From: a virus
Taxonomy: Duplodnaviria; Heunggongvirae; Uroviricota; Caudoviricetes
Strand: one strand, 5' to 3'
Virus record (IMG/VR): IMGVR_UViG_2909288124_000005
Coordinates: 1 to 39,708 of that record
DNA length: 39,708 nucleotides
The position numbers and the translations under genes were made by a program. The stretch's first letter is position 1, and each line of letters begins with the position of its first letter. Below are positions 4,974-39,332 of the stretch, in pieces. The notes below the pieces were generated by a model. The model had not been told where the DNA came from and ran no database searches. It saw only the letters and a program-made list of their open reading frames with translations.

Positions 4974-5410
4974 TTTGCTGCTCCTCATCATATCGACCCT
5001 GCAAGGTCGGTTGGTTTCTCCACAAAACAGAGAAGAACACCTGCGGTGGCAGCCGCCCGGATGGATTGGGTTATGAGCCCGTCGTCCGGTGATGCTCTTC
5101 TCTGTTTTGTAAAAAGGACGGTACCAGCCGGAAGCAAGGGTACAAGCTGGTACCGCCAGGACTACACACAGCATAAAGTTGTGGTGCCGGGTGCCTCCCG
5201 GTGCCTGGCGAAGGTTGCACACCAGGCGGGTGGGTATCCACAGAAGGTCGACTGTCAGCCTCAACCTTAACCCGCGTGCGCTGAGCCGCATTCACCACAA
5301 CGCCAAGGATTCTCTTTGGTTGAAAATACTTAGCTGTTATGTGCCTGTCTTTTCACCACTTCAGGCTCGGTGGTATCCTTTTAAGCCCGTATACATAAAA
5401 GGAAAATCAA

Positions 5411-5656
5411 ATGACTTTTGATGAAAAAGAACTTGATAATGCAATTAATAAAATCATCGTAACGTCGCTCTTTTCCTGTCTCAGCGACACTCAGCAGAAA
5501 CAGTTCTACGAATCGGCTTTCAACATGATCGAGCGTTGTTGTTTCTGCGATGCCGACGAGTTACCTGAAAAAATCAGGAAACAGTTGGCTGATGCTCTTC
5601 GAGTGCGACTTTCTGACCAATTTTCTGAAATGTGCTCTCCGAATTTGGACAAATAG
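5411..5656 (+). CDS. Small hypothetical protein (81 aa)
   Basis: Protein-like composition, AAAGGAAAA upstream; its 3' end converges with and overlaps the 5574..5849 ORF. Confidence 0.3.
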   Translation: MTFDEKELDNAINKIIVTSLFSCLSDTQQKQFYESAFNMIERCCFCDADELPEKIRKQLADALRVRLSDQFSEMCSPNLDK

Positions 5657-5849
5657 AAAAAGGCCATTTCCATTCAGGGTCTGATGGAAATACTTCAGCC
5701 TGTTCCAAAGCACGGCGTAAAGAGAATACAACTCCAGCCATAATCTGATGTTTCCCATTGGTCCAGCTATCGCCGCTCTGATCTACAGGAGCGGCTATGT
5801 CGTATGACCAAACGACTTCACCACTATTGTTTAAAATCTGGACTTTCAT
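5574..5849 (-). CDS. Small hypothetical protein (91 aa), first gene position of leftward operon
   Basis: ATG at 5849 preceded by strong GGAGG RBS; an internal hairpin plus T-run at 5655-5691 makes its distal part uncertain. Confidence 0.35.
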   Translation of the reverse strand: MKVQILNNSGEVVWSYDIAAPVDQSGDSWTNGKHQIMAGVVFSLRRALEQAEVFPSDPEWKWPFSICPNSESTFQKIGQKVALEEHQPTVS

Positions 5850-6240
5850 TTTGTTCTTTAACCTCCAGATACGGGCGTTTAATGGCCCCGCCGAACAGCT
5901 CTTTTCCGCAATAGCTGCAATGTCTTTCGCGCATCAGCCTGCGCATTCACCACAACGCTGAGAGCACTTAGCCAGTTACGGCACCACACTTTGTCGCGGT
6001 TCCATAAATGCCCTCATCGTTGCACCCTGGTCTCTTCCCAGGTGTCAAACCGAACCGCCACGCTGGTTAGGCGTCTTATCAGCATCATCATTGACTTGCA
6101 CATTCCGGCTACCTGGTTTGTTTGCCCGAGCAAGGAGTGGATTGTCCCCTTTAACGTCCCCAGACCGCTAACGACGCATGTGCCATACGCCGTGTTACAA
6201 CCAAATTTTGTTTAATCTTGCCTGTGACATGTTTCTTTTA

Positions 6241-6255
6241 GATACATTATGTATC
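6241..6255. promoter_or_regulatory. Putative OL-type operator palindrome
   Basis: GATACATTATGTATC perfect palindrome; ATACAT half-site recurs between cI and cro. Confidence 0.35.
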
Positions 6256-6275
6256 TCAAGGGTACATTGTCAAGT

Positions 6276-6300
6276 ATAAAAAAACCTGCCGAAGCAGGTT
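6276..6300 (-). terminator. Intrinsic terminator downstream of cI
   Basis: AACCTGC-CGAA-GCAGGTT hairpin (6283-6300) followed on minus strand by T-run (6276-6282), 12 bp after cI stop. Confidence 0.55.
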
Positions 6301-6311
6301 ATAAATATTGA

Positions 6312-6986
6312 TTAGGCCTTTATTTTGTATCTTCTTGGTTTTCCTGAGAAAATTACTGTACCAATTATAGAGCAATTACCGTTGATCTTAATGTAAGGTT
6401 CAGGCCAGTTTGGGTTTAATGCTTTGAGGTAACGCTGTGTTCCATCTTCTATCAACCGCTTAAAGGTGGTTTCGCCTGTATCGTGCATCAATGCAATAAC
6501 GTCGTCACCGTGGCAGGCAGGGACTTCAGGATCTACAAAAATCATGTCTCCCGGGCGGTACTCATCAATCATTGAATCACCAATCACCCGCAAGATATAA
6601 GTCATTTCGCCACAGGGTACAGGGCAGGGATAAGTTTCTGCTGTGCTCAAATCAACCTCAGAATAGCCAACTTCTTTCCATGCTCCGGCCTGTACCCATG
6701 ATATGACAGGGACTAACGTTATTTGTTTGTTAGTAATTGAAACATCAGGTTTTTTTGTGATGTTTGTTGTCTGGTGTTCTTGATCAAGCCATCCGACAGG
6801 CAGGTCGAAACATTTTTCGATGTGCCGTGCCATGCTGTCACCGATATTTTTAGTAGCACCATCTCCCATAAACCTGCTGGTCTGGGTTGGCTCGCGATCA
6901 ATCATGGTGGCAAAGGAAGAATTCCCGCCAACACCATCTCTCAGTTTTCTGGCGTTAGACCGCCGGATGTCATGGACTGTTTTCAT
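6312..6986 (-). CDS. CI-like repressor, HTH plus S24 (LexA-like) autopeptidase
   Basis: C-terminal GDSM...GD...VDP motifs typical of S24 peptidases; divergent from Cro-like gene. Confidence 0.8.
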   Translation of the reverse strand: MKTVHDIRRSNARKLRDGVGGNSSFATMIDREPTQTSRFMGDGATKNIGDSMARHIEKCFDLPVGWLDQEHQTTNITKKPDVSITNKQITLVPVISWVQAGAWKEVGYSEVDLSTAETYPCPVPCGEMTYILRVIGDSMIDEYRPGDMIFVDPEVPACHGDDVIALMHDTGETTFKRLIEDGTQRYLKALNPNWPEPYIKINGNCSIIGTVIFSGKPRRYKIKA

Positions 6987-7002
6987 AACGAAATTAAAAC
7001 CT

Positions 7003-7021
7003 TTGTACCGATAGGGTACAA
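7003..7021. promoter_or_regulatory. Putative OR operator palindrome
   Basis: TTGTACC-GATAG-GGTACAA perfect 7-bp inverted repeat 17 bp upstream of cI start. Confidence 0.4.
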
Positions 7022-7076
7022 GTATCTTGAAGGTTCATCTCAATCATGTAATATGTATATCGGAGGTACATATTGT

Positions 7077-7277
7077 ATGAAAGCGTATTGGGACTCTTTA
7101 ACCAAAGAACAGCAGGGCGAGTTGGCCGGAAAAGTTGGCTCAACACCAGGCTACTTACGGCTGGTTTTCAATGGTTATAAAAAAGCCAGTTTTGTGCTGG
7201 CTAAAAAACTTGAGCAATGCACGTCAGGTGCAATTACGAAATCTGACTTAAGACCGGATATCTATCCGAAAGATTAA
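7077..7277 (+). CDS. Cro-like HTH regulator (YdaS-like)
   Basis: ATG 7077 with GGAGG RBS at 7062-7066; 66 aa; divergent from cI across the operator region. Confidence 0.6.
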   Translation: MKAYWDSLTKEQQGELAGKVGSTPGYLRLVFNGYKKASFVLAKKLEQCTSGAITKSDLRPDIYPKD

Positions 7278-7308
7278 CAGAACACCTTCAATTTTTAACC
7301 ACAGAACG

Positions 7309-7872
7309 ATGAGGCTAACCGTGGGTAAGCATCACTGGAAAGTAGAAAAACAGCCTGAGTGGTACGTGAAAGCTGTCAGAAAAACTATCGCGGCGTTGCC
7401 GGGGGGTTACGCTGAAGCTGCTGAGTGGCTGGATGTAACAGAGAACGCTTTATTCAACCGCCTTCGTGCAGATGGCGATCAGATTTTCCCGCTGGGATGG
7501 GCAATGATTTTACAGCGCGCGGCTGGCACTCACTACATTGCGGATGCTGTCGCACAGTCTGCTGGTGGGGTGTTTGTATCGCTTCCTGAAATTGAGGAAG
7601 TAGAGAACGCCGATATAAACCAGCGCCTGCTGGAAGTCATCGAACAGATCGGGAGTTACTCAAAGCAGATTCGTTCGGCAATCGAAGATGGGGTAGTGGA
7701 GCCACACGAGCAGACAGCAATTAATGATGAGTTGTATCTGTCAATTTCGAAGCTCCAGGAGCATGCAGCACTGGTCTACAAAATCTTTTGCGCTCCAGAA
7801 AAGAGTGACGCCCGCGAGTGTGCAGCTCCGGGCGTCGTGGCGTTTTGTGTCTGTGGAGAAACTAACGCATGA
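7309..7872 (+). CDS. CII-like phage regulatory protein
   Basis: Position immediately after cro; family assignment from memory only. Confidence 0.3.
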   Translation: MRLTVGKHHWKVEKQPEWYVKAVRKTIAALPGGYAEAAEWLDVTENALFNRLRADGDQIFPLGWAMILQRAAGTHYIADAVAQSAGGVFVSLPEIEEVENADINQRLLEVIEQIGSYSKQIRSAIEDGVVEPHEQTAINDELYLSISKLQEHAALVYKIFCAPEKSDARECAAPGVVAFCVCGETNA

Positions 7873-8705
7873 ACAGTTTAACGGCAAATAACCGTTTGTC
7901 GCAACAGCTGGTGGTCAGCGTCGCTGAACACCTGTTGTTACGGCATGAATGCAGATTACCAAATCACCTGGCTGTAAGTAACCACAGAGAACTTTACCTG
8001 ACTGTGGGGGGCGAGTTGTGCAGGAACTTAACCGCTGGTTTCGTGACGGAAGAGGGCTTTATGTCCATGTTATTCGTTGGGAGCCAGAAACACAGCGCGT
8101 TATCTATCTTCGCAAAGACTACCCGCATGAGTGCTTTAGTCCTTTGTGGAAATTCAGGCGTGATTTTGTTGAGTGTGAAGGACCACCAGCACATTGATTC
8201 TGCCATTCCGGGACGTTACACTGTTCAGGCACCTTATAAAGCGGGTGTCGGGATTGGCGTCCTGGAATTGCATACGGCGACAATTGGCGCGTTAGCGTCT
8301 TTTTTGTTGCTACAACTCAGCTATACCCAAATTATGGTGGGCTGGGTGGGGGCACCGAAAGGTGCGCCGGTTTCCGTATGCGCCGGTTACGCCAACCCTG
8401 CTCAGTTCACCACCAGCGAAATTGGCGTTTCCGGTGGTGGAAGTTATCCATTGCATACGGAGGCTGCCATCATGGCTACTGTCCCAGCCCTCACTCGTCT
8501 GAATGATGAAGACTTACATAAACTCAGTTATGTAACAACTGCACTACGTGCTCTGCGCAAGGTAACTCTTTCGGATCCGCAGGCGCATCAAGTTCTGGTA
8601 GAAACCCTTCTTAACTTGCAGGCTGAACGTATTCGTCTGGCGGATAAGACTAATTTTCATATTCACCGTCTCCTGAATATCAGCGGAGGGCATCGTCATG
8701 CTTAA
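7869..8705 (+). CDS. Hypothetical protein (278 aa)
   Basis: Long open frame, start overlaps upstream stop (ATGA) and end overlaps next start; no domain recognised. Confidence 0.4.
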   Translation: MNSLTANNRLSQQLVVSVAEHLLLRHECRLPNHLAVSNHRELYLTVGGELCRNLTAGFVTEEGFMSMLFVGSQKHSALSIFAKTTRMSALVLCGNSGVILLSVKDHQHIDSAIPGRYTVQAPYKAGVGIGVLELHTATIGALASFLLLQLSYTQIMVGWVGAPKGAPVSVCAGYANPAQFTTSEIGVSGGGSYPLHTEAAIMATVPALTRLNDEDLHKLSYVTTALRALRKVTLSDPQAHQVLVETLLNLQAERIRLADKTNFHIHRLLNISGGHRHA

Positions 8706-8934
8706 TCCGTTGATCCTCAATATTTGCCGTTTTCTTCAGCGTAAAAAAACATCAATTCCTACAGTTGGGCAGTGGTACACCACACCTGCAGGGCATGTTC
8801 TACGTGTTAGCCTGGTTGACCGTGAATGCCAGAAGGTGATTTGTGAACCGCTTGGCCGTAATTACCGCGTCAGTATGCCGCTTATAGCCTTTCGCTCCGG
8901 AAAAAACATGAAGCATCTCGGAGGTGCAGCATGA
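8698..8934 (+). CDS. Hypothetical protein (78 aa)
   Basis: Translationally coupled on both sides. Confidence 0.35.
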   Translation: MLNPLILNICRFLQRKKTSIPTVGQWYTTPAGHVLRVSLVDRECQKVICEPLGRNYRVSMPLIAFRSGKNMKHLGGAA

Positions 8935-9749
8935 GTATGGAGCTGATGGTTAAAGCGATGAAAATTCGAGTGGGTAATCCATTGCGAAAACTGGTTCTGA
9001 TCAAGCTGGCTGATAATGCCAGCGATCAGGGTGAGTGCTGGCCCAGCTACCAGCATATTGCTGACCAGTGCGAGATTAGCAAACGTTCTGTGATGAATCA
9101 TATTGCGGCCCTTTGTGAGTCCGGGCTGGTAAAAAAAGTCACCCGGAAAGGTGAAAAAGGTAACTCAAGTAATATCTATCTCCTTCATCTGGATGGTGCA
9201 GGAGATTCACTAGGGGGTAGTGCAAATAATTCACTATCTGGTGCAGCAAATTCACTAGGTAGTGCAGGAGTTGCACCAGGGGGTAGTGCAGGAGATTCAC
9301 CCAGAACCAGTCACTCTTTTGAACCAGTCAAAGAACCAGTCAATGAACCAATAGCTGTTGGTGCATCAGTTGATGAGTCCGTGCGAGTTCGTTCAAACCG
9401 ACCGGAATACTCTCCGGAGTTTGAGCAGGCATGGCTGGCATATCCCAAACGTGCTGGTGGCAATTCAAAATCTGCAGCCTTCAAAGCCTGGAAAGCCCGT
9501 TTGAATGAGGGAGTAAACCCCGAAACCATGCTGGAAGGTGTGAAACGCTACGCGGGCTGGGTATCTGCGATGGGTAACAGCGGCACACAATTTGTGAAAC
9601 AGGCTGTCACGTTCTTTGGTCCGGATCGTCATTTCGAAGAATCCTGGGAAGTTCCTGCGGTATCTGCAGCCAGACGTGAGGACCCGTACTTCAAAGCCAG
9701 TTACGACAACGTGGACTACAGCCAGATCCCGGCAGGATTCAGGGGGTGA
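8931..9749 (+). CDS. Replication initiator-like protein (N-terminal winged HTH)
   Basis: N-terminal LRKLVLIKLADNASDQGECWPSYQHIADQCEISKRSVMNHIAAL resembles phage replication-protein HTH domains; internal iteron array. Confidence 0.6.
   Translation: MSMELMVKAMKIRVGNPLRKLVLIKLADNASDQGECWPSYQHIADQCEISKRSVMNHIAALCESGLVKKVTRKGEKGNSSNIYLLHLDGAGDSLGGSANNSLSGAANSLGSAGVAPGGSAGDSPRTSHSFEPVKEPVNEPIAVGASVDESVRVRSNRPEYSPEFEQAWLAYPKRAGGNSKSAAFKAWKARLNEGVNPETMLEGVKRYAGWVSAMGNSGTQFVKQAVTFFGPDRHFEESWEVPAVSAARREDPYFKASYDNVDYSQIPAGFRG
9195..9354. repeat. Iteron-like direct repeats inside replication gene (putative ori)
   Basis: GTGCAG at 9196, 9241, 9262, 9285 and AGTGCA at 9219 (TGCA spacing about 21-23 bp); GAACCAGTCA at 9304, 9321, 9333. 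Confidence 0.5.
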
Positions 9750-10240
9750 TCATGAGTCTTTTGAATGAAGTTCAGAAATTCATTGAAGCCCATCCGGGGT
9801 GTACTTCCGGAGACATTGCGGATGCTTTTGCAGGTTACTCACGGCAGCGCGTTCTGCAGTCAGCAAGCAAGTTACGTCAGAGTGGGCGTGTGGCTCACCG
9901 TTGTGAAGGAGATACACGCAGACATTTCCCACGCCTGACTGAGAGAGCGCAGGAGCCGGAACCACAACCAGTTCGTGAAACCAAACCTGTGCGCAATTTC
10001 TATGTCGGCACTAACGATCCCCGGGTGATTTTGTGCCTGACCCGCCAGGCTGAAGAGCTGGAGTCCAGGGGGTTATACCGTCGTGCTGCAACGGTGTGGA
10101 TGGCGGCATTCCGAGAAAGCCACTCCCAGCCAGAACGAAACAATTTTCTGGCGCGTCGTGAGCAGTGCTTACGGAAAAGCAGCAAGCGAGCTGTATCGGG
10201 TGATGAGTGGTATCTGTCAGGGAATTACGTGGGGGCTTAA
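9746..10240 (+). CDS. Putative regulator with PerC-like C-terminal motif
   Basis: Motif EELESRGLYRRAATVWMAAF resembles PerC-family signature as I recall it; weak. Confidence 0.3.
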   Translation: MIMSLLNEVQKFIEAHPGCTSGDIADAFAGYSRQRVLQSASKLRQSGRVAHRCEGDTRRHFPRLTERAQEPEPQPVRETKPVRNFYVGTNDPRVILCLTRQAEELESRGLYRRAATVWMAAFRESHSQPERNNFLARREQCLRKSSKRAVSGDEWYLSGNYVGA

Positions 10241-10893
10241 TGAGTAATAAATATTGCCAGGAGCTGGTGGAACTGCGGAACAAACCAGCCCATGAACTGA
10301 AGGAAGTGGGTGATCAGTGGCGCACGCCGGACAACATTTTCTGGGGAATTAACACCCTGTTTGGCCCGTTTGTTCTGGATCTGTTCACTGACGGTGATAA
10401 CGCCAAATGTGCCGCGTATTACACTGCGGAAGACAACGCGCTGGCGCATGACTGGTCAGAACGTCTTGCGGAGCTTAAAGGGGCTGCCTTTGGTAATCCC
10501 CCATACAGCCGCGCCAGTCAGCATGAAGGGCAATACATCACCGGCATGCGTTACATCATGAAGCATGCCAGTGCCATGCGTGATAAGGGCGGACGCTATG
10601 TTTTCCTGATCAAAGCTGCCACCAGCGAAGTGTGGTGGCCGGAAGATGCAGATCATATTGCTTTTATTCGCGGGCGTATTGGTTTTGAACTGCCTGCCTG
10701 GTTTATCCCGAAGGACGAGAAGCAGGTGCCGACAGGCGCTTTCTTCGCTGGTGCTATTGCTGTTTTCGACAAGACCTGGAAGGGACCGGCAATCAGCTAC
10801 ATCGGGCGCGATGAACTTGAGGCATGTGGTGAGGCGTTTCTGGCGCAGGTTCGCCAGCAGGCAGAAAAACTGGTCAGGGAGATGGCGGCATGA
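10240..10893 (+). CDS. Phage N6-adenine DNA methyltransferase (Dam-type)
   Basis: NPPY catalytic motif (FGNPPYSR); ATG 10240 overlaps upstream stop (TAATG). Confidence 0.75.
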   Translation: MSNKYCQELVELRNKPAHELKEVGDQWRTPDNIFWGINTLFGPFVLDLFTDGDNAKCAAYYTAEDNALAHDWSERLAELKGAAFGNPPYSRASQHEGQYITGMRYIMKHASAMRDKGGRYVFLIKAATSEVWWPEDADHIAFIRGRIGFELPAWFIPKDEKQVPTGAFFAGAIAVFDKTWKGPAISYIGRDELEACGEAFLAQVRQQAEKLVREMAA

Positions 10894-11216
10894 CGACGTT
10901 AACTCAATGCCAGCAGCAGGTGCTGGATATGCTGATTTCTTATCAGAAAGAACGTGGCTTCCCGCCAACCAATCAGGAGGTGGCAACCATGCTGGGATAC
11001 CGTTCGGTGAATGCAGCGGTGGAGCATCTTCGCGCACTGGAGAAAAAAGGCGTCATCACGATAAAGCGTGGCGTGGCCCGGGGGATAACGCTTCATACCG
11101 CGGTGAAGGACGACGACAGCGAGGCGGTCGGGATTATCCGCGCACTGCTTGCCGGTGAGGAAAACGCAAGGCTGCGTGCAACCCACTGGTTACATGAGAG
11201 GGACCTGAAAGTATGA
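10890..11216 (+). CDS. LexA N-terminal DNA-binding-domain protein lacking peptidase domain
   Basis: QQQVLDMLISYQKERGFPPTNQEVATMLGYRSVNAAVEHLRALEKKGVI closely parallels the LexA N-terminal domain; only 108 aa. Confidence 0.6.
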   Translation: MTTLTQCQQQVLDMLISYQKERGFPPTNQEVATMLGYRSVNAAVEHLRALEKKGVITIKRGVARGITLHTAVKDDDSEAVGIIRALLAGEENARLRATHWLHERDLKV

Positions 11217-11602
11217 AGCTGATCCTGCCTTTTCCGCCCAGCGTGAACACGTACTGGCGACACCCCAACAAAGGGGCGTTTGCTGGTAAGAGCCTGATAA
11301 GCGCGGCGGGGCGAAAATTCCAGAGCGCGGCGTGCGCAGCAATAGTTGAGCAGTTACGTCGTCTGCCGAAACCAACGTCGGCACCTGCTTCAGTGGAGAT
11401 CGTGTTGTTTCCTCCGGATAACCGGATCCGCGATCTGGACAACTATAACAAGGCGCTGTTTGACGCCCTGACCCACGCGGGTGTGTGGGAAGACGACAGT
11501 CAGGTGAAAAGAATGCTGGTGGAGTGGGGATCGGTTATCCCGGAAGGGAAGGTCGAGATCACTATCAGTAAGTACGAGAAAACGGCGGGTGCAGCTGCCT
11601 GA
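11213..11602 (+). CDS. rusA: RusA Holliday-junction resolvase
   Basis: LPFPPSVNTYW and D-x-DN...DAL...GVWEDD motifs characteristic of RusA. Confidence 0.85.
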   Translation: MKLILPFPPSVNTYWRHPNKGAFAGKSLISAAGRKFQSAACAAIVEQLRRLPKPTSAPASVEIVLFPPDNRIRDLDNYNKALFDALTHAGVWEDDSQVKRMLVEWGSVIPEGKVEITISKYEKTAGAAA

Positions 11603-11621
11603 TTAAGAGGAGAAACGAAGT

Positions 11622-12431
11622 ATGAATAATCTGATGGTCATTGATGGTATTGAAGTTCGTCGTGATGCTTATGGGCGTTACAGCCTGAACGATCTGCATC
11701 GCGCAGCAGTAGCATCTGGTGCAAATGCCAGAACCAAGGAGCCGGGAAAGTTTCTTTCCAGCCAACAAACTGTTGAGCTTGTTCATGAATTGACCAACAC
11801 CCAGAATTTGGGTGTTGACCCGGTGAGTGTGATTCATGGGGGAAATGAACGGGGAACGTATGTCTGCAAGGAACTGGTGTATGCCTATGCAATGTGGATC
11901 AGCCCGTCATTCCATCTGAAGGTGATCCGTACTTTCGATATGGTAACCAGCGCACCGGAAAAATTATCCGGACAGGCTGCTGACAAGATGCAGGCTGGCG
12001 TGATCCTGCTGGACTTTATGCGCCGGGAGTTAAACCTGTCTAACTCTTCAGTGCTTGGTGCCTGTCAGAAACTCCAGGAGGCTGTTGGCTTACCGAATCT
12101 GGCACCGCGCTATGCCATTGATGCTCCTGCTGATGCACACGATGGCTCAAGTCGCCCGACACTGTCACTGAGTGCACTGCTGAAACAGTATGGTATACGC
12201 CTGACGGCTAATCAGGCATATCACCAGATGGTGAAACTGGGGATCGTCGAGCAGCGCGAACGATACAGCCGTACCGCGATTAACAACATCAAAAAATTCT
12301 GGTCGCTGACAGCGAAAGGTTGCATGTTCGGCAAGAACATCACCAGTCCCGCAAATCCGCGCGAGACGCAGCCGCATTTCTTCGAATCCCGATTCCCTGA
12401 GCTGTTAAAGCTGCTCGATACCGTTCATTGA
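11622..12431 (+). CDS. KilA-N domain protein (antirepressor-like)
   Basis: N-terminal GRYSLNDLHRA motif typical of KilA-N. Confidence 0.55.
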   Translation: MNNLMVIDGIEVRRDAYGRYSLNDLHRAAVASGANARTKEPGKFLSSQQTVELVHELTNTQNLGVDPVSVIHGGNERGTYVCKELVYAYAMWISPSFHLKVIRTFDMVTSAPEKLSGQAADKMQAGVILLDFMRRELNLSNSSVLGACQKLQEAVGLPNLAPRYAIDAPADAHDGSSRPTLSLSALLKQYGIRLTANQAYHQMVKLGIVEQRERYSRTAINNIKKFWSLTAKGCMFGKNITSPANPRETQPHFFESRFPELLKLLDTVH

Positions 12432-12432
12432 G

Positions 12433-13428
12433 GTGACCGTGAGAGCACTACTGACCCCTGAAATTGCCCCGCGTATGGGGATCGTATTGTTCAGGCCAGG
12501 TTCAGAGCTGATGCCCCTGTTTATGCAGGGGCGTGTCCTGCTGGAGCCTGAGCCGGAGCGTTATTCATCTTTCGCCAGTGGTGCCGTTCCGGCGGCATCA
12601 CAACCGCTGGCGGATGATCCTGCCGTTCGGGCCGTGTTCCGCAATGAGGCAGTGATCCGTCGTGCTGGTGGCGTGGAATGTCTTGAAAGCTGGTTACTTC
12701 GTGAAAAAGGCTGTCAGTGGCCTCATTCCGACTGGCACAGCGAGAACATGACCACAATGCGACACGCGCCGGGTGCAATCCGTCTGTGCTGGCACTGCGA
12801 TAACCAGCTGCGCGATCAGTTCACGGAACGGCTGGAATCAATGGCAACGGATAACTGTGCCCGCTGGGTGTTGTCTGTTGTGCGTCGGGATCTCGGTTTT
12901 GATGACAGTCACGTTGTGACAATGCCGGAACTGTGCTGGTGGCTGATTCGTAATGATCTGGCGGATGCCTTACCGGAAAGTGCAGCCCGTAAGGCACTGA
13001 GATTACCGAAGCCTGTTGTGCCGTCTGTTACCCGGGAAAGTGACCTTGTGCCTTCGGTTCCTGCCACCAGCATCATCCAGGATAAGGCGAAAAAGGTGCT
13101 GGCGCTGAAAGTGGATCCGGAGTCGCCGGAGTCTTTTATGTTACGCCCAAAACGTCGCCGCTGGGTTAATGAAAAGTACACGCGCTGGGTTAAGACACAG
13201 CCGTGTGCATGTTGTGGAAAGCCCGCTGATGATCCCCACCACCTGATAGGTCACGGTCAGGGTGGAATGGGAACAAAAGCGCATGACCTCTTTGTGTTGC
13301 CTTTGTGCAGAAAGCATCACGACGAGCTGCATGCGGATACCGTGGCATTTGAAGAGAAGTATGGTTCCCAGCTGGAGCTGATATTTCGTTTTATCGATCG
13401 TGCGCTGGCAATAGGCGTACTGGCGTAA
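12433..13428 (+). CDS. DUF968-like protein with HNH-like Cys/His motif
   Basis: C-terminal CACCGK...HHLIGHG...LPLCRKHHDELH. Confidence 0.5.
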   Translation: MTVRALLTPEIAPRMGIVLFRPGSELMPLFMQGRVLLEPEPERYSSFASGAVPAASQPLADDPAVRAVFRNEAVIRRAGGVECLESWLLREKGCQWPHSDWHSENMTTMRHAPGAIRLCWHCDNQLRDQFTERLESMATDNCARWVLSVVRRDLGFDDSHVVTMPELCWWLIRNDLADALPESAARKALRLPKPVVPSVTRESDLVPSVPATSIIQDKAKKVLALKVDPESPESFMLRPKRRRWVNEKYTRWVKTQPCACCGKPADDPHHLIGHGQGGMGTKAHDLFVLPLCRKHHDELHADTVAFEEKYGSQLELIFRFIDRALAIGVLA

Positions 13429-13441
13429 GTGGAGAACGAGC

Positions 13442-14194
13442 ATGAACCTTGAAGCCTTACCGAAATATTACTCCCCGAAATCTCCAAAACTGAGCGATGA
13501 CGCACCGGCGACAGGCTCTGGTGGTTTAACAATTACGGATGTGATGGCTGCGCAGGGGATGGTGCAGTCGAAAGCACCGCTTGGGTTTGCCTTATTCCTG
13601 GCAAAAGTTGGTGTTCAGGATCCTCAGTTTGCGATTGAAGGTCTGCTCAATTACGCGATGGCACTGGATAACCCGACATTGAACAAATTGAGTGAAGAAA
13701 CCCGGTTACAGATCATCCCTTACCTTGTGAATTTTGCCTTTGCTGATTATTCCAGGTCTGCGGCAAGTAAGGCTCGCTGTGAGCATTGTGCTGGTACTGG
13801 ATTTCATAATGTATTGCGCGAAGTGGTGAAACACTCCAGAAGCGGGGAATCTGTTATCAAGGAAGAGTGGGTGAAGGAACTATGTCAGCATTGTCATGGT
13901 AAGGGAGAAGTCAGCACAGCGTGTAGAGGGTGTAAGGGGAAAGGTATTGTACTGGATGAAAAAAGAACCCGGCTTCATGGTGCGCCTGTTTATAAGATTT
14001 GTGGGCGTTGCAATGGAAACCGGTTTAGCCGTTTACCAACCACACTGGCGCGGCATCATGTCCAGAAGCTGGTACCGGACCTGACGGATTATCAGTGGTA
14101 CAAAGGATATGCAGATGTCATTGATAAACTGGTTACAAAGTGCTGGCAGGAAGAAGCATATGCAGAGACACAATTGAGAAAAGTGACAAGATAA
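13442..14194 (+). CDS. Q-like late antiterminator
   Basis: CxxC...CxxC zinc-finger pairs; immediately upstream of late promoter/terminator and lysis cassette. Confidence 0.55.
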   Translation: MNLEALPKYYSPKSPKLSDDAPATGSGGLTITDVMAAQGMVQSKAPLGFALFLAKVGVQDPQFAIEGLLNYAMALDNPTLNKLSEETRLQIIPYLVNFAFADYSRSAASKARCEHCAGTGFHNVLREVVKHSRSGESVIKEEWVKELCQHCHGKGEVSTACRGCKGKGIVLDEKRTRLHGAPVYKICGRCNGNRFSRLPTTLARHHVQKLVPDLTDYQWYKGYADVIDKLVTKCWQEEAYAETQLRKVTR

Positions 14195-14225
14195 ATGATT
14201 TTCGCCGAAGATGGCGACATGATGC

Positions 14226-14254
14226 TTGCATTTTTCAAAAAATATGGTTAGGAT
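14226..14254 (+). promoter_or_regulatory. Putative late promoter (PR-prime-like)
   Basis: TTGCAT -17 bp- TAGGAT, about 50 bp upstream of an intrinsic terminator. Confidence 0.35.
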
Positions 14255-14304
14255 TCTCCTAACGATGGGCTTTGTATGTCTGCCGTTAACGAAATCATAA
14301 CAAA

Positions 14305-14330
14305 CCTCGCTTCGGCGGGGTTTTTGCTTT
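14305..14330 (+). terminator. Intrinsic terminator (tR-prime-like; candidate Q target)
   Basis: CCTCGC-TTCG-GCGGGG hairpin followed by TTTTTGCTTTTCT. Confidence 0.55.
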
Positions 14331-14344
14331 TCTGGAGGTCAATA

Positions 14345-14602
14345 ATGCAGGGCGAAAAGCAGCAGCCATATTTTTTTAACCCTGGTATGACTGTTGAACA
14401 GCTTGAAGACTGGCTGGAGCAGCAAAAGCTTCATCTAAGCCGCTATAACCGTCTGGTAAAAGAAAAAGCAGAGCTTGAAGAACGGCTCAGTGATATTTCT
14501 GTGGAAATTGAACGAATGTCTGCTGGTGGTTTTAACGGAAAGTTGAGTTTCCCCTGGGAGTCAAGTTCGCTTCTGAGAAATCATCAACAGGGTAGTATTT
14601 GA
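14345..14602 (+). CDS. Hypothetical coiled-coil protein, first late gene
   Basis: ATG 14345 preceded by GGAGG; charged helical composition; no TM segment. Confidence 0.35.
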   Translation: MQGEKQQPYFFNPGMTVEQLEDWLEQQKLHLSRYNRLVKEKAELEERLSDISVEIERMSAGGFNGKLSFPWESSSLLRNHQQGSI

Positions 14603-14681
14603 CTGAAATAATAAACAGACTGTCATTAAGATCCCTTCCCCTCATATCTGAGAGGGCCAACAGCAATTAAGAGGGGGCTAA

Positions 14682-15068
14682 ATGTCCGATCCGATTTCCG
14701 GTACTGGGCTGGCTGGTGGTGCCCTGACGGGTGCCAGTGTTTATGGACTGCTGACCGGAACTGATTACGGCGTTGTATTTGGCGCATTTGCAGGGGCTGT
14801 ATTCTACATAGCAACAGCAGCAGATCTGAGTGCATCGCGCCGACTGGCATATTTTATCGTGTCATATATTGCCGGGATTCTTTGCTCTGGGTTGGTTGGC
14901 TCCAAGCTGGCGAACTTGACCGGATACAGTGATAAACCTCTGGATGCTATTGGTGCCGTAATCGTCTCTGCTTTAGCCGTTAAAATCCTGACGTTCCTGA
15001 ATAATCAGGATATCGGCTCGCTGGTGGCGCTCATAACGCGCCGGGGAGGTTCAGGTGGAGCTAAATGA
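14682..15068 (+). CDS. Holin (multi-TM)
   Basis: Several Gly/Ala-rich hydrophobic segments with charged C-terminus; precedes endolysin. Confidence 0.55.
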   Translation: MSDPISGTGLAGGALTGASVYGLLTGTDYGVVFGAFAGAVFYIATAADLSASRRLAYFIVSYIAGILCSGLVGSKLANLTGYSDKPLDAIGAVIVSALAVKILTFLNNQDIGSLVALITRRGGSGGAK

Positions 15069-34820: not shown

Positions 34821-35261
34821 ATGCAGAAATATATTTTCAGTGCCGATAAAAATGCGTTTTTCCCTGTGGAGCTTAAAATCGCTTATCAGGAGTCCGGCGA
34901 ATGGCCCGATGATGGAATCGAAATTGACGACACTATTGCCGCCGAATTTATGAAGGAAGCACCAGAAGGAAAATACAGAGGTGTCATCGACGGAATGCCA
35001 GCATGGATTGATATTCCACCGCCAACTCATGAGGAACAAATTGCCGCAGCCGAACTGGAAAAGCAGCAATTGATTAATCAGATCAACGAACACATGAACA
35101 GCAGGCAATTGCCTGGTAAAGCGGCTATTGGTCGTCTGAAAGGTGAGGAACTGGCGCAATATAATTTATGGCTTGATTATCTGGACGCACTGGAACTGGT
35201 TGATACTTCCGGTGCGCCAGATATTGAATGGCCTACGCCTCCGGCAGTTCAGGCCAGATGA
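34821..35261 (+). CDS. Tail fibre assembly protein
   Basis: PPPTHEEQIAAAE...W..YLDAL...DTSGAP motifs. Confidence 0.75.
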   Translation: MQKYIFSADKNAFFPVELKIAYQESGEWPDDGIEIDDTIAAEFMKEAPEGKYRGVIDGMPAWIDIPPPTHEEQIAAAELEKQQLINQINEHMNSRQLPGKAAIGRLKGEELAQYNLWLDYLDALELVDTSGAPDIEWPTPPAVQAR

Positions 35262-35649
35262 CATCAGGGGCCGTTGACGTATCGACGGCTTTCACCGCTT
35301 TTTTATGCGCCATCCACTCAGACAATTTCGCTTTATCCTCGTCACTTATATCGCCGAGCATTAATTCAACCCGCCAGTCGGCGGTTACTTCGTCAATCTG
35401 CTGTAGCCGTTGCTGGCGATATTGTTCTGCCGCCGCTATTTGCTCTTCATGCGTTGGAGGCGGCGCATCGACCCATGCGGGCAGTCCAGTGCTATCTGCA
35501 CCAAGCATTTTACCTTCAGGCCAGGCAATACCAGCAAATTGGTTGTAGAGGTTAACACTGATTTCAATAGCTGATTCAGGAATAAACCTGCTTTCAGGTT
35601 CAATATAAAATCCGTTATCAACGGCGTCGTAAAAGTATCTTGTTTTCAT
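35233..35649 (-). CDS. Alternative tail fibre assembly protein
   Basis: Same motifs, opposite strand inside invertible segment. Confidence 0.7.
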   Translation of the reverse strand: MKTRYFYDAVDNGFYIEPESRFIPESAIEISVNLYNQFAGIAWPEGKMLGADSTGLPAWVDAPPPTHEEQIAAAEQYRQQRLQQIDEVTADWRVELMLGDISDEDKAKLSEWMAHKKAVKAVDTSTAPDVIWPELPEA

Positions 35650-36098: not shown

Positions 36099-36662
36099 AT
36101 GATTTACGGGTATGTTCGTGTATCAACAAATCATCAGGATACAGAGTTGCAACGTCTTGCACTTGAGTCAGCTGGCTGTGAGCGAATTTATGAAGAATAT
36201 GCCAGTGGCAGAACAGCTAATCGCCCTGTGTTAAAGGAATTAATTACGGTGATGAAAAGTGGAGATGAGTTGATTGTCTGGAAGTTAGATCGGATAGGGA
36301 GAAATGTGCTGCATGCGCTATTGATGTTTCAAAATCTGCACGAAAAAGGTGTTAATTTTCGGAGTATTACAGATGGCGTAGACCTGAAAACAGCAAGTGG
36401 TCGCTATAATTTCCGTAATATTCTTTCTGCTGCGCAGTATGAATCTGATTTGAATAGCGAGCGAACTTTAGCTGGTTTGGCTATTGCCAGATCCAAAGGC
36501 CGGATTGGTGGGCGTAGACCGAAGTTTAGCGACGAGCAGTGGAGACAGATGGGAGCGCTCATAGCGGCAGGGAAATCACGGCGTTATGTTGCACGTATCT
36601 ATAACGTTGGGCTATCAACCCTATATAAACGATTTCCTGTTACTGGCATTCAAACGAAATAA
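36099..36662 (+). CDS. Serine DNA invertase (Hin/Gin/Pin/Cin family)
   Basis: N-terminal YGYVRVSTNHQD with catalytic Ser context, C-terminal HTH; adjacent to invertible segment. Confidence 0.9.
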   Translation: MIYGYVRVSTNHQDTELQRLALESAGCERIYEEYASGRTANRPVLKELITVMKSGDELIVWKLDRIGRNVLHALLMFQNLHEKGVNFRSITDGVDLKTASGRYNFRNILSAAQYESDLNSERTLAGLAIARSKGRIGGRRPKFSDEQWRQMGALIAAGKSRRYVARIYNVGLSTLYKRFPVTGIQTK

Positions 36663-36798: not shown

Positions 36799-37047
36799 TT
36801 AGTGAACAAACCACTCGTCAGCAGATTCCCAGGTATCTTTCAGAGTCTCCTGAACAAAAGTTTTTGCAGAATCCTTATCTGCGGTGCGTGTAACAGAAAG
36901 GCCATCGTTGCTGGTGGCTTTTACGATCACCTCTACATCGTCATAACGTTTACTGATGCGTCGGGTTAATTCTTCCTTTAACGCATCCACAGCACCGGTT
37001 GGCATTTTAGTCATTTTTTCTTTGGCTATGCAGATTTCAATACGCAT
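36799..37047 (-). CDS. DinI-like protein
   Basis: MRIEICIAK...[11 protein letters not shown] parallels DinI as I recall it. Confidence 0.7.
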
Positions 37048-37108
37048 AAAAGTCCCTCTATACTGTGTTTGTATACAGTACTATTTTTAACTGTATAGAT
37101 AAACAGTG

Positions 37109-38206
37109 TCAAGAGGCCTTATTTCTGCTCCTTTGGAGCTCTTCAAAACGATTATGTAAAGATTTCGGATACAGTTCGGTATATACCTGCCATAGCACGT
37201 TTAATGAACGATGCCCTGTAACCTGGGCGACTTCCTCAATACTAAAACCAGCCTCAAATAAGCGACTTGCCCCTTCTCTACGCAAATCATGGTATCGTAG
37301 ATCTTTAATACCTAATTTGCTTCTTACCCTCTGGAATCCCGCAGTAACAGAAGTGCTGTTATATGGAAAAATGAATTCTGATTTTTTGGGTTGTCGTTGG
37401 ACGATATCCCAGGCTTCCCCAAGCAAGGCTACTTTCATATGGTTGCCTTCCTTTTTACGTGGATCTTTCCTGTCTCTTACGAGTATGGATTTTTGTTCCT
37501 GATCGAGATCCTCCCATCGTAATCGGCATACTTCACCGATTCGCATACATGACCACACAGAAAATTTGAGGATATCAACGAACGGAATTTTTGAGCATTT
37601 ATGTGTAGATCGTTGTTGAAGACCTTCAATGAGCATGTCCAGTTCATCAGATGCCGGTCTACGATTACGACGATTTGATTTACCAATTAAACCAAGTTTA
37701 AGTAGATATGGACGAGCGGCTTTTGCTGGGTTTGATGTGTAATTAATTCCATATACAGGTTTGGCAGCATCCAGAACACTGCCAAGATAACTAACATCGT
37801 GGCTAACTGTAGCTGGACCTGCACCAGCGTTGTTTCTTAGCCTGCAATGTTCAATTACGTCATTTTCTGTCAGTTCAGATAGTTTGATCGCGGAGATGTC
37901 ACTATCCATAAGCAGTTCCAGCACATATCTTTTAGTACGGCCTGCTTTACCTCCGGCATTTGGGTCATTTAAATATTTGTGTAGTAAGTCACGGACTGTA
38001 AGTCCGTCAACTGCATTTGATGATGGAATGCCATATAGATCTAATTCCATCACTTTCTGTGTGCCCCATGTTTTGGCATGAGCATGTTTAGGGAATGTTT
38101 TACTTTCCCTGTAAGTGATAACACCTTTTTCTTTGATAATCACATTACAGCGATAGCGTGGTGTGCCATCGGATTTTAGTCGTTTCTCTATGTTATAGTA
38201 CGCCAT
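37109..38206 (-). CDS. Tyrosine integrase, dusA-associated type
   Basis: C-terminal R...H..LRR...Y catalytic pattern (RYHDLRR...GHRSL...Y); start 89 bp from dusA start, divergent. Confidence 0.9.
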   Translation of the reverse strand: MAYYNIEKRLKSDGTPRYRCNVIIKEKGVITYRESKTFPKHAHAKTWGTQKVMELDLYGIPSSNAVDGLTVRDLLHKYLNDPNAGGKAGRTKRYVLELLMDSDISAIKLSELTENDVIEHCRLRNNAGAGPATVSHDVSYLGSVLDAAKPVYGINYTSNPAKAARPYLLKLGLIGKSNRRNRRPASDELDMLIEGLQQRSTHKCSKIPFVDILKFSVWSCMRIGEVCRLRWEDLDQEQKSILVRDRKDPRKKEGNHMKVALLGEAWDIVQRQPKKSEFIFPYNSTSVTAGFQRVRSKLGIKDLRYHDLRREGASRLFEAGFSIEEVAQVTGHRSLNVLWQVYTELYPKSLHNRFEELQRSRNKAS

Positions 38207-38294: not shown

Positions 38295-39332
38295 ATGCAC
38301 GATAATCATGAAACACAAAAAATTAATCAAACCAGCGTGATGCCTGAAAAAACTGGTGTTTACTGGAATTCTCGGTTTAGCATTGCCCCTATGCTCGACT
38401 GGACGGACAGACATTGCCGCTATTTCTTGCGTCTGCTTTCCCGCAATACGTTGCTGTATACCGAAATGGTGACCACAGGGGCGATTATTCACGGTAAAGG
38501 TGATTATCTGGCGTACAGTGAAGAAGAACATCCGGTAGCGTTGCAACTGGGCGGTAGCGATCCGGCGGCGCTGGCGCAGTGTGCAAAGCTGGCAGAAGCG
38601 CGCGGATATGATGAGATCAACCTGAATGTCGGCTGCCCGTCTGACCGGGTGCAGAACGGCATGTTTGGTGCGTGTCTGATGGGTAATGCGCAGCTGGTTG
38701 CCGACTGCGTGAAAGCGATGCGCGATGTGGTGTCGATTCCGGTGACGGTGAAAACGCGTATTGGCATCGACGACCAGGACAGCTATGAATTTCTCTGCGA
38801 TTTCATCAATACCGTTTCCGGCAATGGCGAGTGTGAGATGTTCATCATCCACGCACGTAAAGCCTGGCTTTCGGGGTTAAGCCCGAAAGAAAACCGTGAA
38901 ATCCCGCCGCTCGATTATCCGCGTGTGTATCAACTGAAGCGTGACTTTCCGCATCTGACAATGTCGATTAACGGTGGTATCAAGTCGCTGGAAGAGGCCA
39001 AAGCACACCTGCAACATATGGATGGCGTGATGGTCGGGCGCGAGGCGTATCAGAATCCGGGTATTCTGGCGGCGGTAGACCGGGAGATCTTTGGTTCCTC
39101 GGATACCGATGCCGATCCGGTGGCGGTAGTGCGCGCCATGTATCCGTACATTGAGCGTGAACTCAGCCAGGGGACGTATCTCGGCCATATTACCCGGCAT
39201 ATGTTGGGCTTGTTCCAGGGTATTCCTGGCGCGCGGCAGTGGCGGCGTTATTTAAGTGAAAATGCCCATAAAGCGGGTGCAGACATTAATGTGCTGGAAC
39301 ACGCGCTCAAACTGGTGGCGGATAAGCGTTAA
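38295..39332 (+). CDS. dusA: tRNA-dihydrouridine synthase A; 5' end probably prophage-supplied
   Basis: Dus-family sequence throughout; followed by pspG as in E. coli. Confidence 0.9.

Follow-up and report, generated by a model that had tools for sequence, protein, structure and literature searches.

The window analysed here is a whole stretch of 39,708 nucleotides of viral DNA (IMG/VR record IMGVR_UViG_2909288124_000005) that constitutes a lambdoid prophage, and the gene under study, lexN, encodes a small protein, LexA-N, that joins a LexA-type winged helix to a C-terminal helical hairpin. lexN occupies positions 10890–11216 on the plus strand; it begins with ATG and runs for 108 codons in a program-made list of open reading frames (ORFs), exactly as the original prediction had placed it, and the coding sequence is further documented by matches to PF01726 and PHROG_362 and by annotated E. 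coli genes that are 100% identical. A Shine-Dalgarno-like GGGAG lies 7 nucleotides 5′ of the start codon. The ATG overlaps the TGA of the gene directly upstream as ATGA (10890–10893), and the lexN TGA overlaps the ATG of the gene directly downstream in the same way (11213–11216). The upstream gene codes for a phage Dam-type N6-adenine methyltransferase (10207–10893, plus strand; PF05869, E = 1.1e-45) and the downstream gene for a RusA Holliday-junction resolvase (11213–11602, plus strand; PF05866), the lexN-rusA pair being kept in distant relatives (loci L001–L011). Because neither a sigma-70-like promoter nor a convincing plus-strand terminator was found between lexN and the genes upstream, lexN is a delayed-early gene of the pR operon, whose transcript in the window reads O-like replication gene, perC-like, dam, lexN, rusA, kilA-N, DUF968 and Q. 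LexA-N is produced only once CI has been inactivated, i.e., when host LexA has already been cleaved. The CI repressor itself (6312–6986, minus strand) had been described as LexA-like, which applies only to its possession of a Peptidase_S24 domain (PF00717, E = 1.5e-26).

The first 68 residues of LexA-N (10890–11093, plus strand) form a LexA-type winged helix-turn-helix, with helices at residues 6–22, 28–35 and 40–52 and strands at residues 56–58 and 66–68, as delineated by an AlphaFold model, Foldseek and phmmer. PF01726 (LexA_DNA_bind) is matched over its full length by residues 1–65 (model positions 1–65 of 65; score 69 bits, cutoff 23.7, E = 2.9e-19), and a phmmer search of PDB ranks E. coli LexA highest among solved structures, both as the N-terminal domain and at full length (E ∼1e-15; residues 2–70 and 2–90). 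The AlphaFold model (predicted local distance difference test [pLDDT] score of 83) superimposes on 1lea and 3jso in Foldseek with a root-mean-square deviation (rmsd) of 1.0–1.2 Å over 67–69 residues at ∼50% identity. Alignment with host LexA, which had been proposed as a check, likewise gives ∼50% identity over residues 2–70 of the E. coli protein, a likeness far above chance expectation. LexA-N derives from the N-terminal domain of a gammaproteobacterial LexA.

The protease half of LexA is missing. No match to Peptidase_S24 (PF00717) was found in LexA-N by the Pfam search, the protein stops at residue 108, and the NCBIfam lexA equivalog TIGR00498 is matched only at model positions 1–91 of 203, with 70.6 bits falling below the cutoff of 110.95. 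The presence of the winged helix and the absence of the S24 autopeptidase, both anticipated in the original prediction, are thus borne out. Relative to host LexA (TIGR00498; 1LEA, 3JSO), LexA-N retains S39, N41, A42, E45, H46, K53 and the R64-G65-I66 wing, whereas it lacks the S24 peptidase/dimerisation domain, the Ser119/Lys156 dyad and the conserved Ala84-Gly85 site, carries Val in place of Glu44, and has a hairpin added; it is also phage-encoded within a pR operon and has no adjoining SOS-box autoregulation in the window. HMMER pairs residues 80–90 (VGIIRALLAGE) with the LexA cleavage-site region (VGRVAAGE), which places an Ala-Gly at residues 88–89. Relatives do not conserve this dipeptide (they have AN, VG, ER, TR, DD and others), and the model predicts a helix there; a functional cleavage site was rejected, and the segment is regarded as at most an evolutionary vestige. 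With the S24 domain, the catalytic dyad, the conserved cleavage site and the curated score all failing, LexA-N is not LexA proper, and because it has no S24 domain, RecA*-stimulated self-cleavage cannot inactivate it.

Beyond the winged helix the AlphaFold model contains an acidic linker at residues 69–75 (11094–11114, plus strand), which is of low confidence (pLDDT <50 at residues 71–75), followed with good confidence by a two-helix hairpin at residues 74–103 (11109–11198, plus strand; helices at 74–87 and 93–103). All of 20 close relatives share L86, L87 and A93, and almost all have I82, A97, W100 and L101. The pattern ..V.LLRALLA.E..AR.RA..WL...G is kept in relatives at 38–49% identity, and since conservation of the hairpin equals that of the winged helix down to 38% identity, the hairpin is taken to be functional. 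It is not part of LexA, it is also absent from gp6 of phage GIL01 (see below), and Foldseek against PDB found no match for it among solved structures. Isolated amphipathic two-helix hairpins are typical dimerisation elements, and the modelled hairpin of LexA-N is a good candidate for a dimerisation module. The BlaI/MecI repressors, in which a winged helix is followed by a small C-terminal helical dimerisation domain, resemble LexA-N in architecture only: the Foldseek matches are weak (2g9w, 2d45; rmsd 8–10 Å) and there is no sequence relationship, so that they serve purely as an analogy for a short helical tail dimerising a winged helix. The description of LexA-N as a DNA-binding domain alone therefore holds as far as the lost S24 half is concerned, but the protein is not a bare domain, and the dimerisation-defective competitor that had been envisaged becomes less likely given so good a candidate for a dimerisation module at its C-terminus.

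Two published accounts place the DNA contacts of E. coli LexA at Ser39, Asn41, Ala42, Glu44 and Glu45 (PMC3091678, PMC13416735). LexA-N keeps four of these five residues (S39, N41, A42 and E45) and has Val at position 44; its recognition helix, located from alignments and the published contact residues, spans residues 40–52 (11007–11045, plus strand). Every member of the LexA-N family has S39 and N41, and nearly every one A42, while residue 45 is Glu in the window-type proteins and in several other clades and Leu, Ile, Thr, Ser or Asp elsewhere. According to a further study, the free LexA N-terminal domain retains some SOS-box binding and repression and must be removed by ClpXP for SOS induction (PMC10584840). 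LexA-N is like this LexA 1–84 cleavage fragment in being a LexA DNA-binding domain without the C-terminal domain. It differs in that the fragment is rapidly degraded by ClpXP via a cleavage-exposed degron, whereas LexA-N ends in …ERDLKV and has an extra folded hairpin; LexA-N may, unlike the fragment, be stable and dimeric.

LexA-N matches PHROG_362 ('transcriptional repressor') over its full length, hairpin included (E = 3.8e-59; residues 1–108 against profile positions 1–106 of 106). lexN is found with its dam and rusA neighbours at 95–99% identity in ∼50 deposited phages, among them SfV (orf42, NP_599074, 'unknown'), SfII, SfIV, mEp460 (gp46, YP_007112120), cdtI and many Stx2a- and Stx2c-converting phages; the PHROG_362 members of SfV, SfII, mEp460, cdtI and the Stx2 phages are the same gene as that of the window, 95–100% identical and with the same neighbours. 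Intact lexN ORFs are present in 2232 of 5426 complete E. coli genomes (41%), where PGAP names the product 'LexA family transcriptional regulator', and some of these genes are 100% identical to that of the window. The novelty implied by the original prediction is thus not upheld: thousands of genomes already carry an annotation of lexN, and GIL01 gp6 is an earlier case of a functionally characterised, truncated LexA homologue encoded by a phage. The name that lexN carries in these catalogues appears to rest on annotation only. Several phage records (e.g., KF030445, LR595868, MT225100, AB285204) call it 'SOS-response repressor and protease LexA', 'LexA repressor' or 'RecA-mediated autopeptidases'; annotation as a full LexA is wrong, given that LexA-N has no protease half. 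RefSeq phage records label the neighbouring Dam methyltransferase 'phosphoadenosine phosphosulfate reductase'.

A deep HMMER search recovered short, full-length relatives of LexA-N down to ∼38% identity. In all relative contexts retrieved (L001–L011 and mEp460) lexN belongs to a lambdoid early-right operon in which rusA follows it at once or nearly so, with DUF968 and Q after rusA, and a DNA methyltransferase gene very often comes before lexN. This order is held although the repressor type, the replication module and the Q family differ among the relatives; a functional link could account for it, but so could plain inheritance of the module. A scan of genome contigs returned mostly genuine host lexA genes (Halomonas and others), and only the Buttiauxella locus L011 belonged to the LexA-N family. 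The deep search also recovered proteins of 140–350 residues (P0130, P0131, P0148, P0150, P0153, P0155, P0156 and others) with two tandem LexA-type DNA-binding domains and no S24 domain, which look like a different, single-chain 'pseudo-dimer' answer to the loss of the LexA dimerisation domain.

Three sister clades, represented by the P0139, P0172 and P0218 types (38–41% identity to the LexA-N of the window; the P0172 type is found in Klebsiella phage Kp4865-4), were examined for upstream control elements. A scan of viral contigs gave 80 loci, 76 of them with enough upstream sequence, and a perfect CTGT-N8-ACAG SOS box, close to consensus, is present at a fixed offset upstream of lexN in 66 of the 76. 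The box overlaps a -10-like element and lies downstream of a TTGA-type -35. When 25 promoter representatives of less than 80% identity were compared, the flanks had diverged while the box was kept, together with the AT-rich positions inside it and the TA/TA that flanks it; no second palindrome besides the SOS box was detected in these 25. The sister-clade operon consists of the SOS-box promoter, a dinI-like gene (PF06183, E = 1e-24), a small ORF termed orfX, lexN, DUF968 and a Q-like gene, except that the P0139 and P0218 types have no dinI gene in the lexN operon. Because the SOS-box/dinI operon contains lexN, sister-clade lexN is an SOS gene that is co-expressed with a RecA modulator. orfX, always situated between the SOS-box promoter (or dinI) and lexN (L140 3640–3879; L006 5713–5961; L010 5724–5951), is conserved, encodes 75–96 residues and matches no Pfam family; a homologue was looked for in the window and none was found. 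The Kp4865-4-type operon (L140 3290–6162; L006 5500–8413; L010 5500–8195; ∼66 viral loci) further contains a 67-codon ORF between lexN and DUF968 and shows no obvious terminator before the Q-like gene. If read-through occurs there, host LexA rather than CI would directly gate Q.

The window was scanned for perfect CTGT-N8-ACAG sequences, which were then scored out of 20 to the SOS-box consensus. There are three perfect matches, one in the Ash-family ORF and two at the promoter of a dinI-like gene (36799–37047, minus strand; PF06183, E = 1.1e-19), the one obvious SOS-box-controlled phage gene in the window. Box 1 (AACTGTATAGATAAACAGTG, 37091–37106, 16/20) is flanked by the -35 (TTGACA) and the -10 (TAAAAT), with box 2 (TACTGTGTTTGTATACAGTA, 37063–37078, 17/20) just downstream of the -10; the order on the minus strand is TTGACA, box 1, TAAAAT, box 2, ribosome-binding site and ATG, which by its sequence has the makings of a textbook LexA-repressed promoter. 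The prophage dinI is a candidate target of LexA-N. It lies directly beside the integrase stop codon, and the dinI module is common to mEp460, cdtI and many Stx1 and Stx2 phages; VT1-Sakai annotates a LexA binding site there. The third perfect box (7972–7987) was taken as a chance occurrence: it scores 11/20, lies within the Ash-family ORF and is kept as coding sequence in mEp460 gp41. A 24-nucleotide imperfect palindrome (7897–7920/7922–7945) precedes it at the start of the same ORF. Two SOS-box-like sites (14603–14618 and 14648–14663), each with one mismatch that is identical in both (CTGA…ACAG), are found 45 bp apart in the short intergenic region that immediately precedes the holin gene (14682); they may represent a variant operator or be due to chance. 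An inverted-repeat search of positions 5200–14800 for a phage-specific operator yielded nothing convincing beyond CI-operator-like palindromes near 7003–7080. These lie between cI and the cro-like gene (7003–7021 and 7044–7080; TTGTACC-GATAG-GGTACAA and TCATGTAATATGTA/TACATATTGTATGA) and are likely CI/Cro operators unrelated to SOS boxes.

The remaining genes of the window are those of a lambdoid prophage. cI is followed by a cro-like ORF, CII (PF06892) and the Ash-family protein; the O-like replication protein is encoded at 8931–9749, and a homologue of PerC-family (YfdN-like) transcriptional activators at 9746–10240, two genes upstream of lexN. PerC/Pch-type proteins control virulence loci in pathogenic E. 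coli. Downstream of lexN the order is RusA, KilA-N, DUF968/HNH and Q (13442–14194), then lysis and morphogenesis genes. The right part of the window holds a serine invertase of the Hin/Gin/Cin type (Resolvase + HTH_7; 36099–36662, plus strand) at the end of the tail-fibre region, the dinI-like gene, a tyrosine integrase (37109–38206, minus strand) and the adjoining host dihydrouridine synthase gene dusA (38295–39332, plus strand; Pfam Dus, E = 1e-104), and the prophage looks to be inserted at the dusA locus. Short, oppositely oriented ORFs (34821–35649) adjoin the invertase, and the region suggests an invertible tail-fibre host-range switch.

We tentatively favour, at somewhat less than even confidence, the reading that LexA-N is a RecA-insensitive binder of LexA-type operators that dimerises through its hairpin and re-represses SOS-box promoters. 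LexA-N would appear with the delayed-early pR transcript, after CI has been inactivated and host LexA cleaved, and would dimerise via the conserved C-terminal hairpin. The dimer would bind LexA-type operators (CTGT-containing palindromes) and re-repress SOS-box promoters, namely the phage's own double-box dinI promoter and those of host SOS genes, whatever the level of RecA activity; LexA-N would thereby serve as an SOS off-switch, a LexA surrogate that cannot be cleaved. Its effect in the sister clades would be negative feedback on its own SOS-box operon, and autoregulation as for lexA fits, because the repressor's operon has the SOS box as its only conserved operator. A damping of the SOS response would be expected from DinI and from a LexA surrogate alike. 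The non-cleavable SOS-box binder put forward in the original prediction is plausible from sequence comparison, and it gains indirect support because LexA-N retains four of five contact residues, the free N-terminal domain of LexA is reported to bind SOS boxes, the sister clades have an SOS-box/dinI promoter, and the window has a dinI double box.

Several observations weigh against this reading. Residue 44 is never Glu anywhere in the family, and residue 45 is not Glu in the large Klebsiella-type clade, the very clade that has an SOS-box promoter and whose phage Kp4865-4 has Leu at both positions; the target of LexA-N may therefore differ from the canonical SOS box. The CTGT-N8-ACAG scan found no SOS box close to window-type lexN, and where sister clades have one, host LexA control suffices to explain it, so that the box alone is no proof of LexA-N binding. 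Co-occurrence, used to examine a functional link with dinI in the window-type lineage, gave a loose association only: dinI and lexN are present together in at least 29 of 50 phage records, many dinI phages are without lexN, and the 60 dinI matches listed, out of 92, do not include SfV, SfII or SfIV. No experimental study of the LexA-N family turned up in literature searches, and the only characterised truncated LexA homologue from a phage, GIL01 gp6, is an activator with its own site.

That precedent underlies the main alternative, in which LexA-N is a gp6-like regulator, a captured LexA domain retargeted to one or more phage operators, where it would activate or repress phage promoters to time phage genes, with no direct action on host SOS functions; we consider this somewhat unlikely, though it deserves serious attention. 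gp6 of the Bacillus tectivirus GIL01 recognises GaCACAn-nTGTGaC at the P3 promoter, covering its -35, and switches on late genes (PMC6182141). It is like LexA-N in kind, as a phage-encoded LexA head; the family-wide loss of E44 and the variability of residue 45 suggest an altered specificity, and the early operon upstream of Q, where lexN lies, is a natural site for a timing regulator. However, gp6 is a bare winged helix of 66 residues without a hairpin, whereas LexA-N has an extra hairpin of 35 residues; the recognition helix of gp6 has diverged, and gp6 binds a non-LexA palindrome and activates a late promoter, whereas LexA-N keeps LexA-like contacts in a lambdoid phage whose late genes are under the Q antiterminator and need no late activator. 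BLASTP gave no alignment of LexA-N with gp6 at E ≤ 100; MAFFT aligned them at 33% identity with differing recognition helices, that of LexA-N being much nearer LexA. The sequences point to independent captures, gp6 from a Firmicute LexA and LexA-N from a gammaproteobacterial one. No conserved phage-specific palindrome was found in the early and late control regions of the window, and the sister-clade promoters show the SOS box only. A dominant-negative or competitor function, the second option of the original prediction, with a monomeric LexA head occupying SOS half-sites or otherwise interfering with host LexA and so derepressing or blunting regulation, appears improbable. In its favour, the LexA C-terminal dimerisation domain is absent from LexA-N, and an isolated N-terminal domain of LexA has a lower affinity for DNA than dimeric LexA. 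The account cited above credits that domain with 'some' binding (PMC10584840). Against it, the conserved helical hairpin is a likely oligomerisation surface, and any occupant of a promoter-overlapping operator represses transcription; moreover, LexA-N is made once LexA has already been cleaved, leaving little to compete with.

The conserved gene order invites a non-transcriptional explanation, to which we give little credence, that LexA-N is an accessory of a module comprising a Dam or C5 methyltransferase, RusA and DUF968-HNH, with a part in junction resolution, methylation or replication-coupled recombination. The order methyltransferase, lexN, rusA, DUF968 is kept at 38–49% identity, often with 4-nucleotide overlaps, despite differing repressors, replication genes and Q, but gene order in lambdoid nin regions is conserved by module inheritance regardless, and the Klebsiella-type clade has lexN without an adjoining rusA. 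The retention of base-contact residues argues for sequence-specific recognition, and we know of no precedent for an accessory role of a LexA head in such a module. Finally, LexA-N might be what is left of a captured lexA that is decaying and has no function: nothing beyond the first half of LexA is represented, and residues 76–90 are paired by HMMER with the cleavage-site region including its 'AG'. Conservation over the full length, hairpin included, down to 38% identity effectively refutes this extremely improbable explanation, and the intact ORFs in 41% of complete E. coli genomes and the translational coupling on both sides of the gene speak against it as well, as do the lack of conservation of the 'AG' and its position in a predicted helix.

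The features newly described here, namely the conserved C-terminal hairpin, the lexN-rusA-DUF968 synteny and the SOS-box/dinI/orfX/lexN operon of the sister clades, make the idea of an uncleavable LexA surrogate concrete and testable. If LexA-N has an operator of its own instead, it is an ordinary phage regulator. If it binds SOS boxes, ∼40% of sequenced E. coli, including lysogens of Stx2 phages, carry a RecA-insensitive LexA surrogate, with possible effects on SOS-dependent mutagenesis, responses to antibiotics, the induction of Shiga-toxin phages and the competition of prophages with one another; this would be a second re-use of a LexA head by phages, mechanistically opposite to that of GIL01 gp6. 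A broader proposal, which we regard as speculative and rather unlikely, is that lambdoid prophages of Enterobacteriaceae carry a dedicated anti-SOS module. At its core would be a LexA surrogate that cannot be cleaved and dimerises by its hairpin; in many phages it would have a DinI-like modulator of RecA as its partner, and in the sister clades the two would share a transcript from the SOS-box promoter. While RecA is still active, the surrogate would again silence the host SOS regulon, along with LexA-controlled rivals such as colicins, toxins or antirepressor-controlled prophages. Such a module would be relevant to work on the SOS response and phage induction, as a large share of E. coli strains would have their induction threshold set by it, or their SOS response ended by it in the course of lytic growth.

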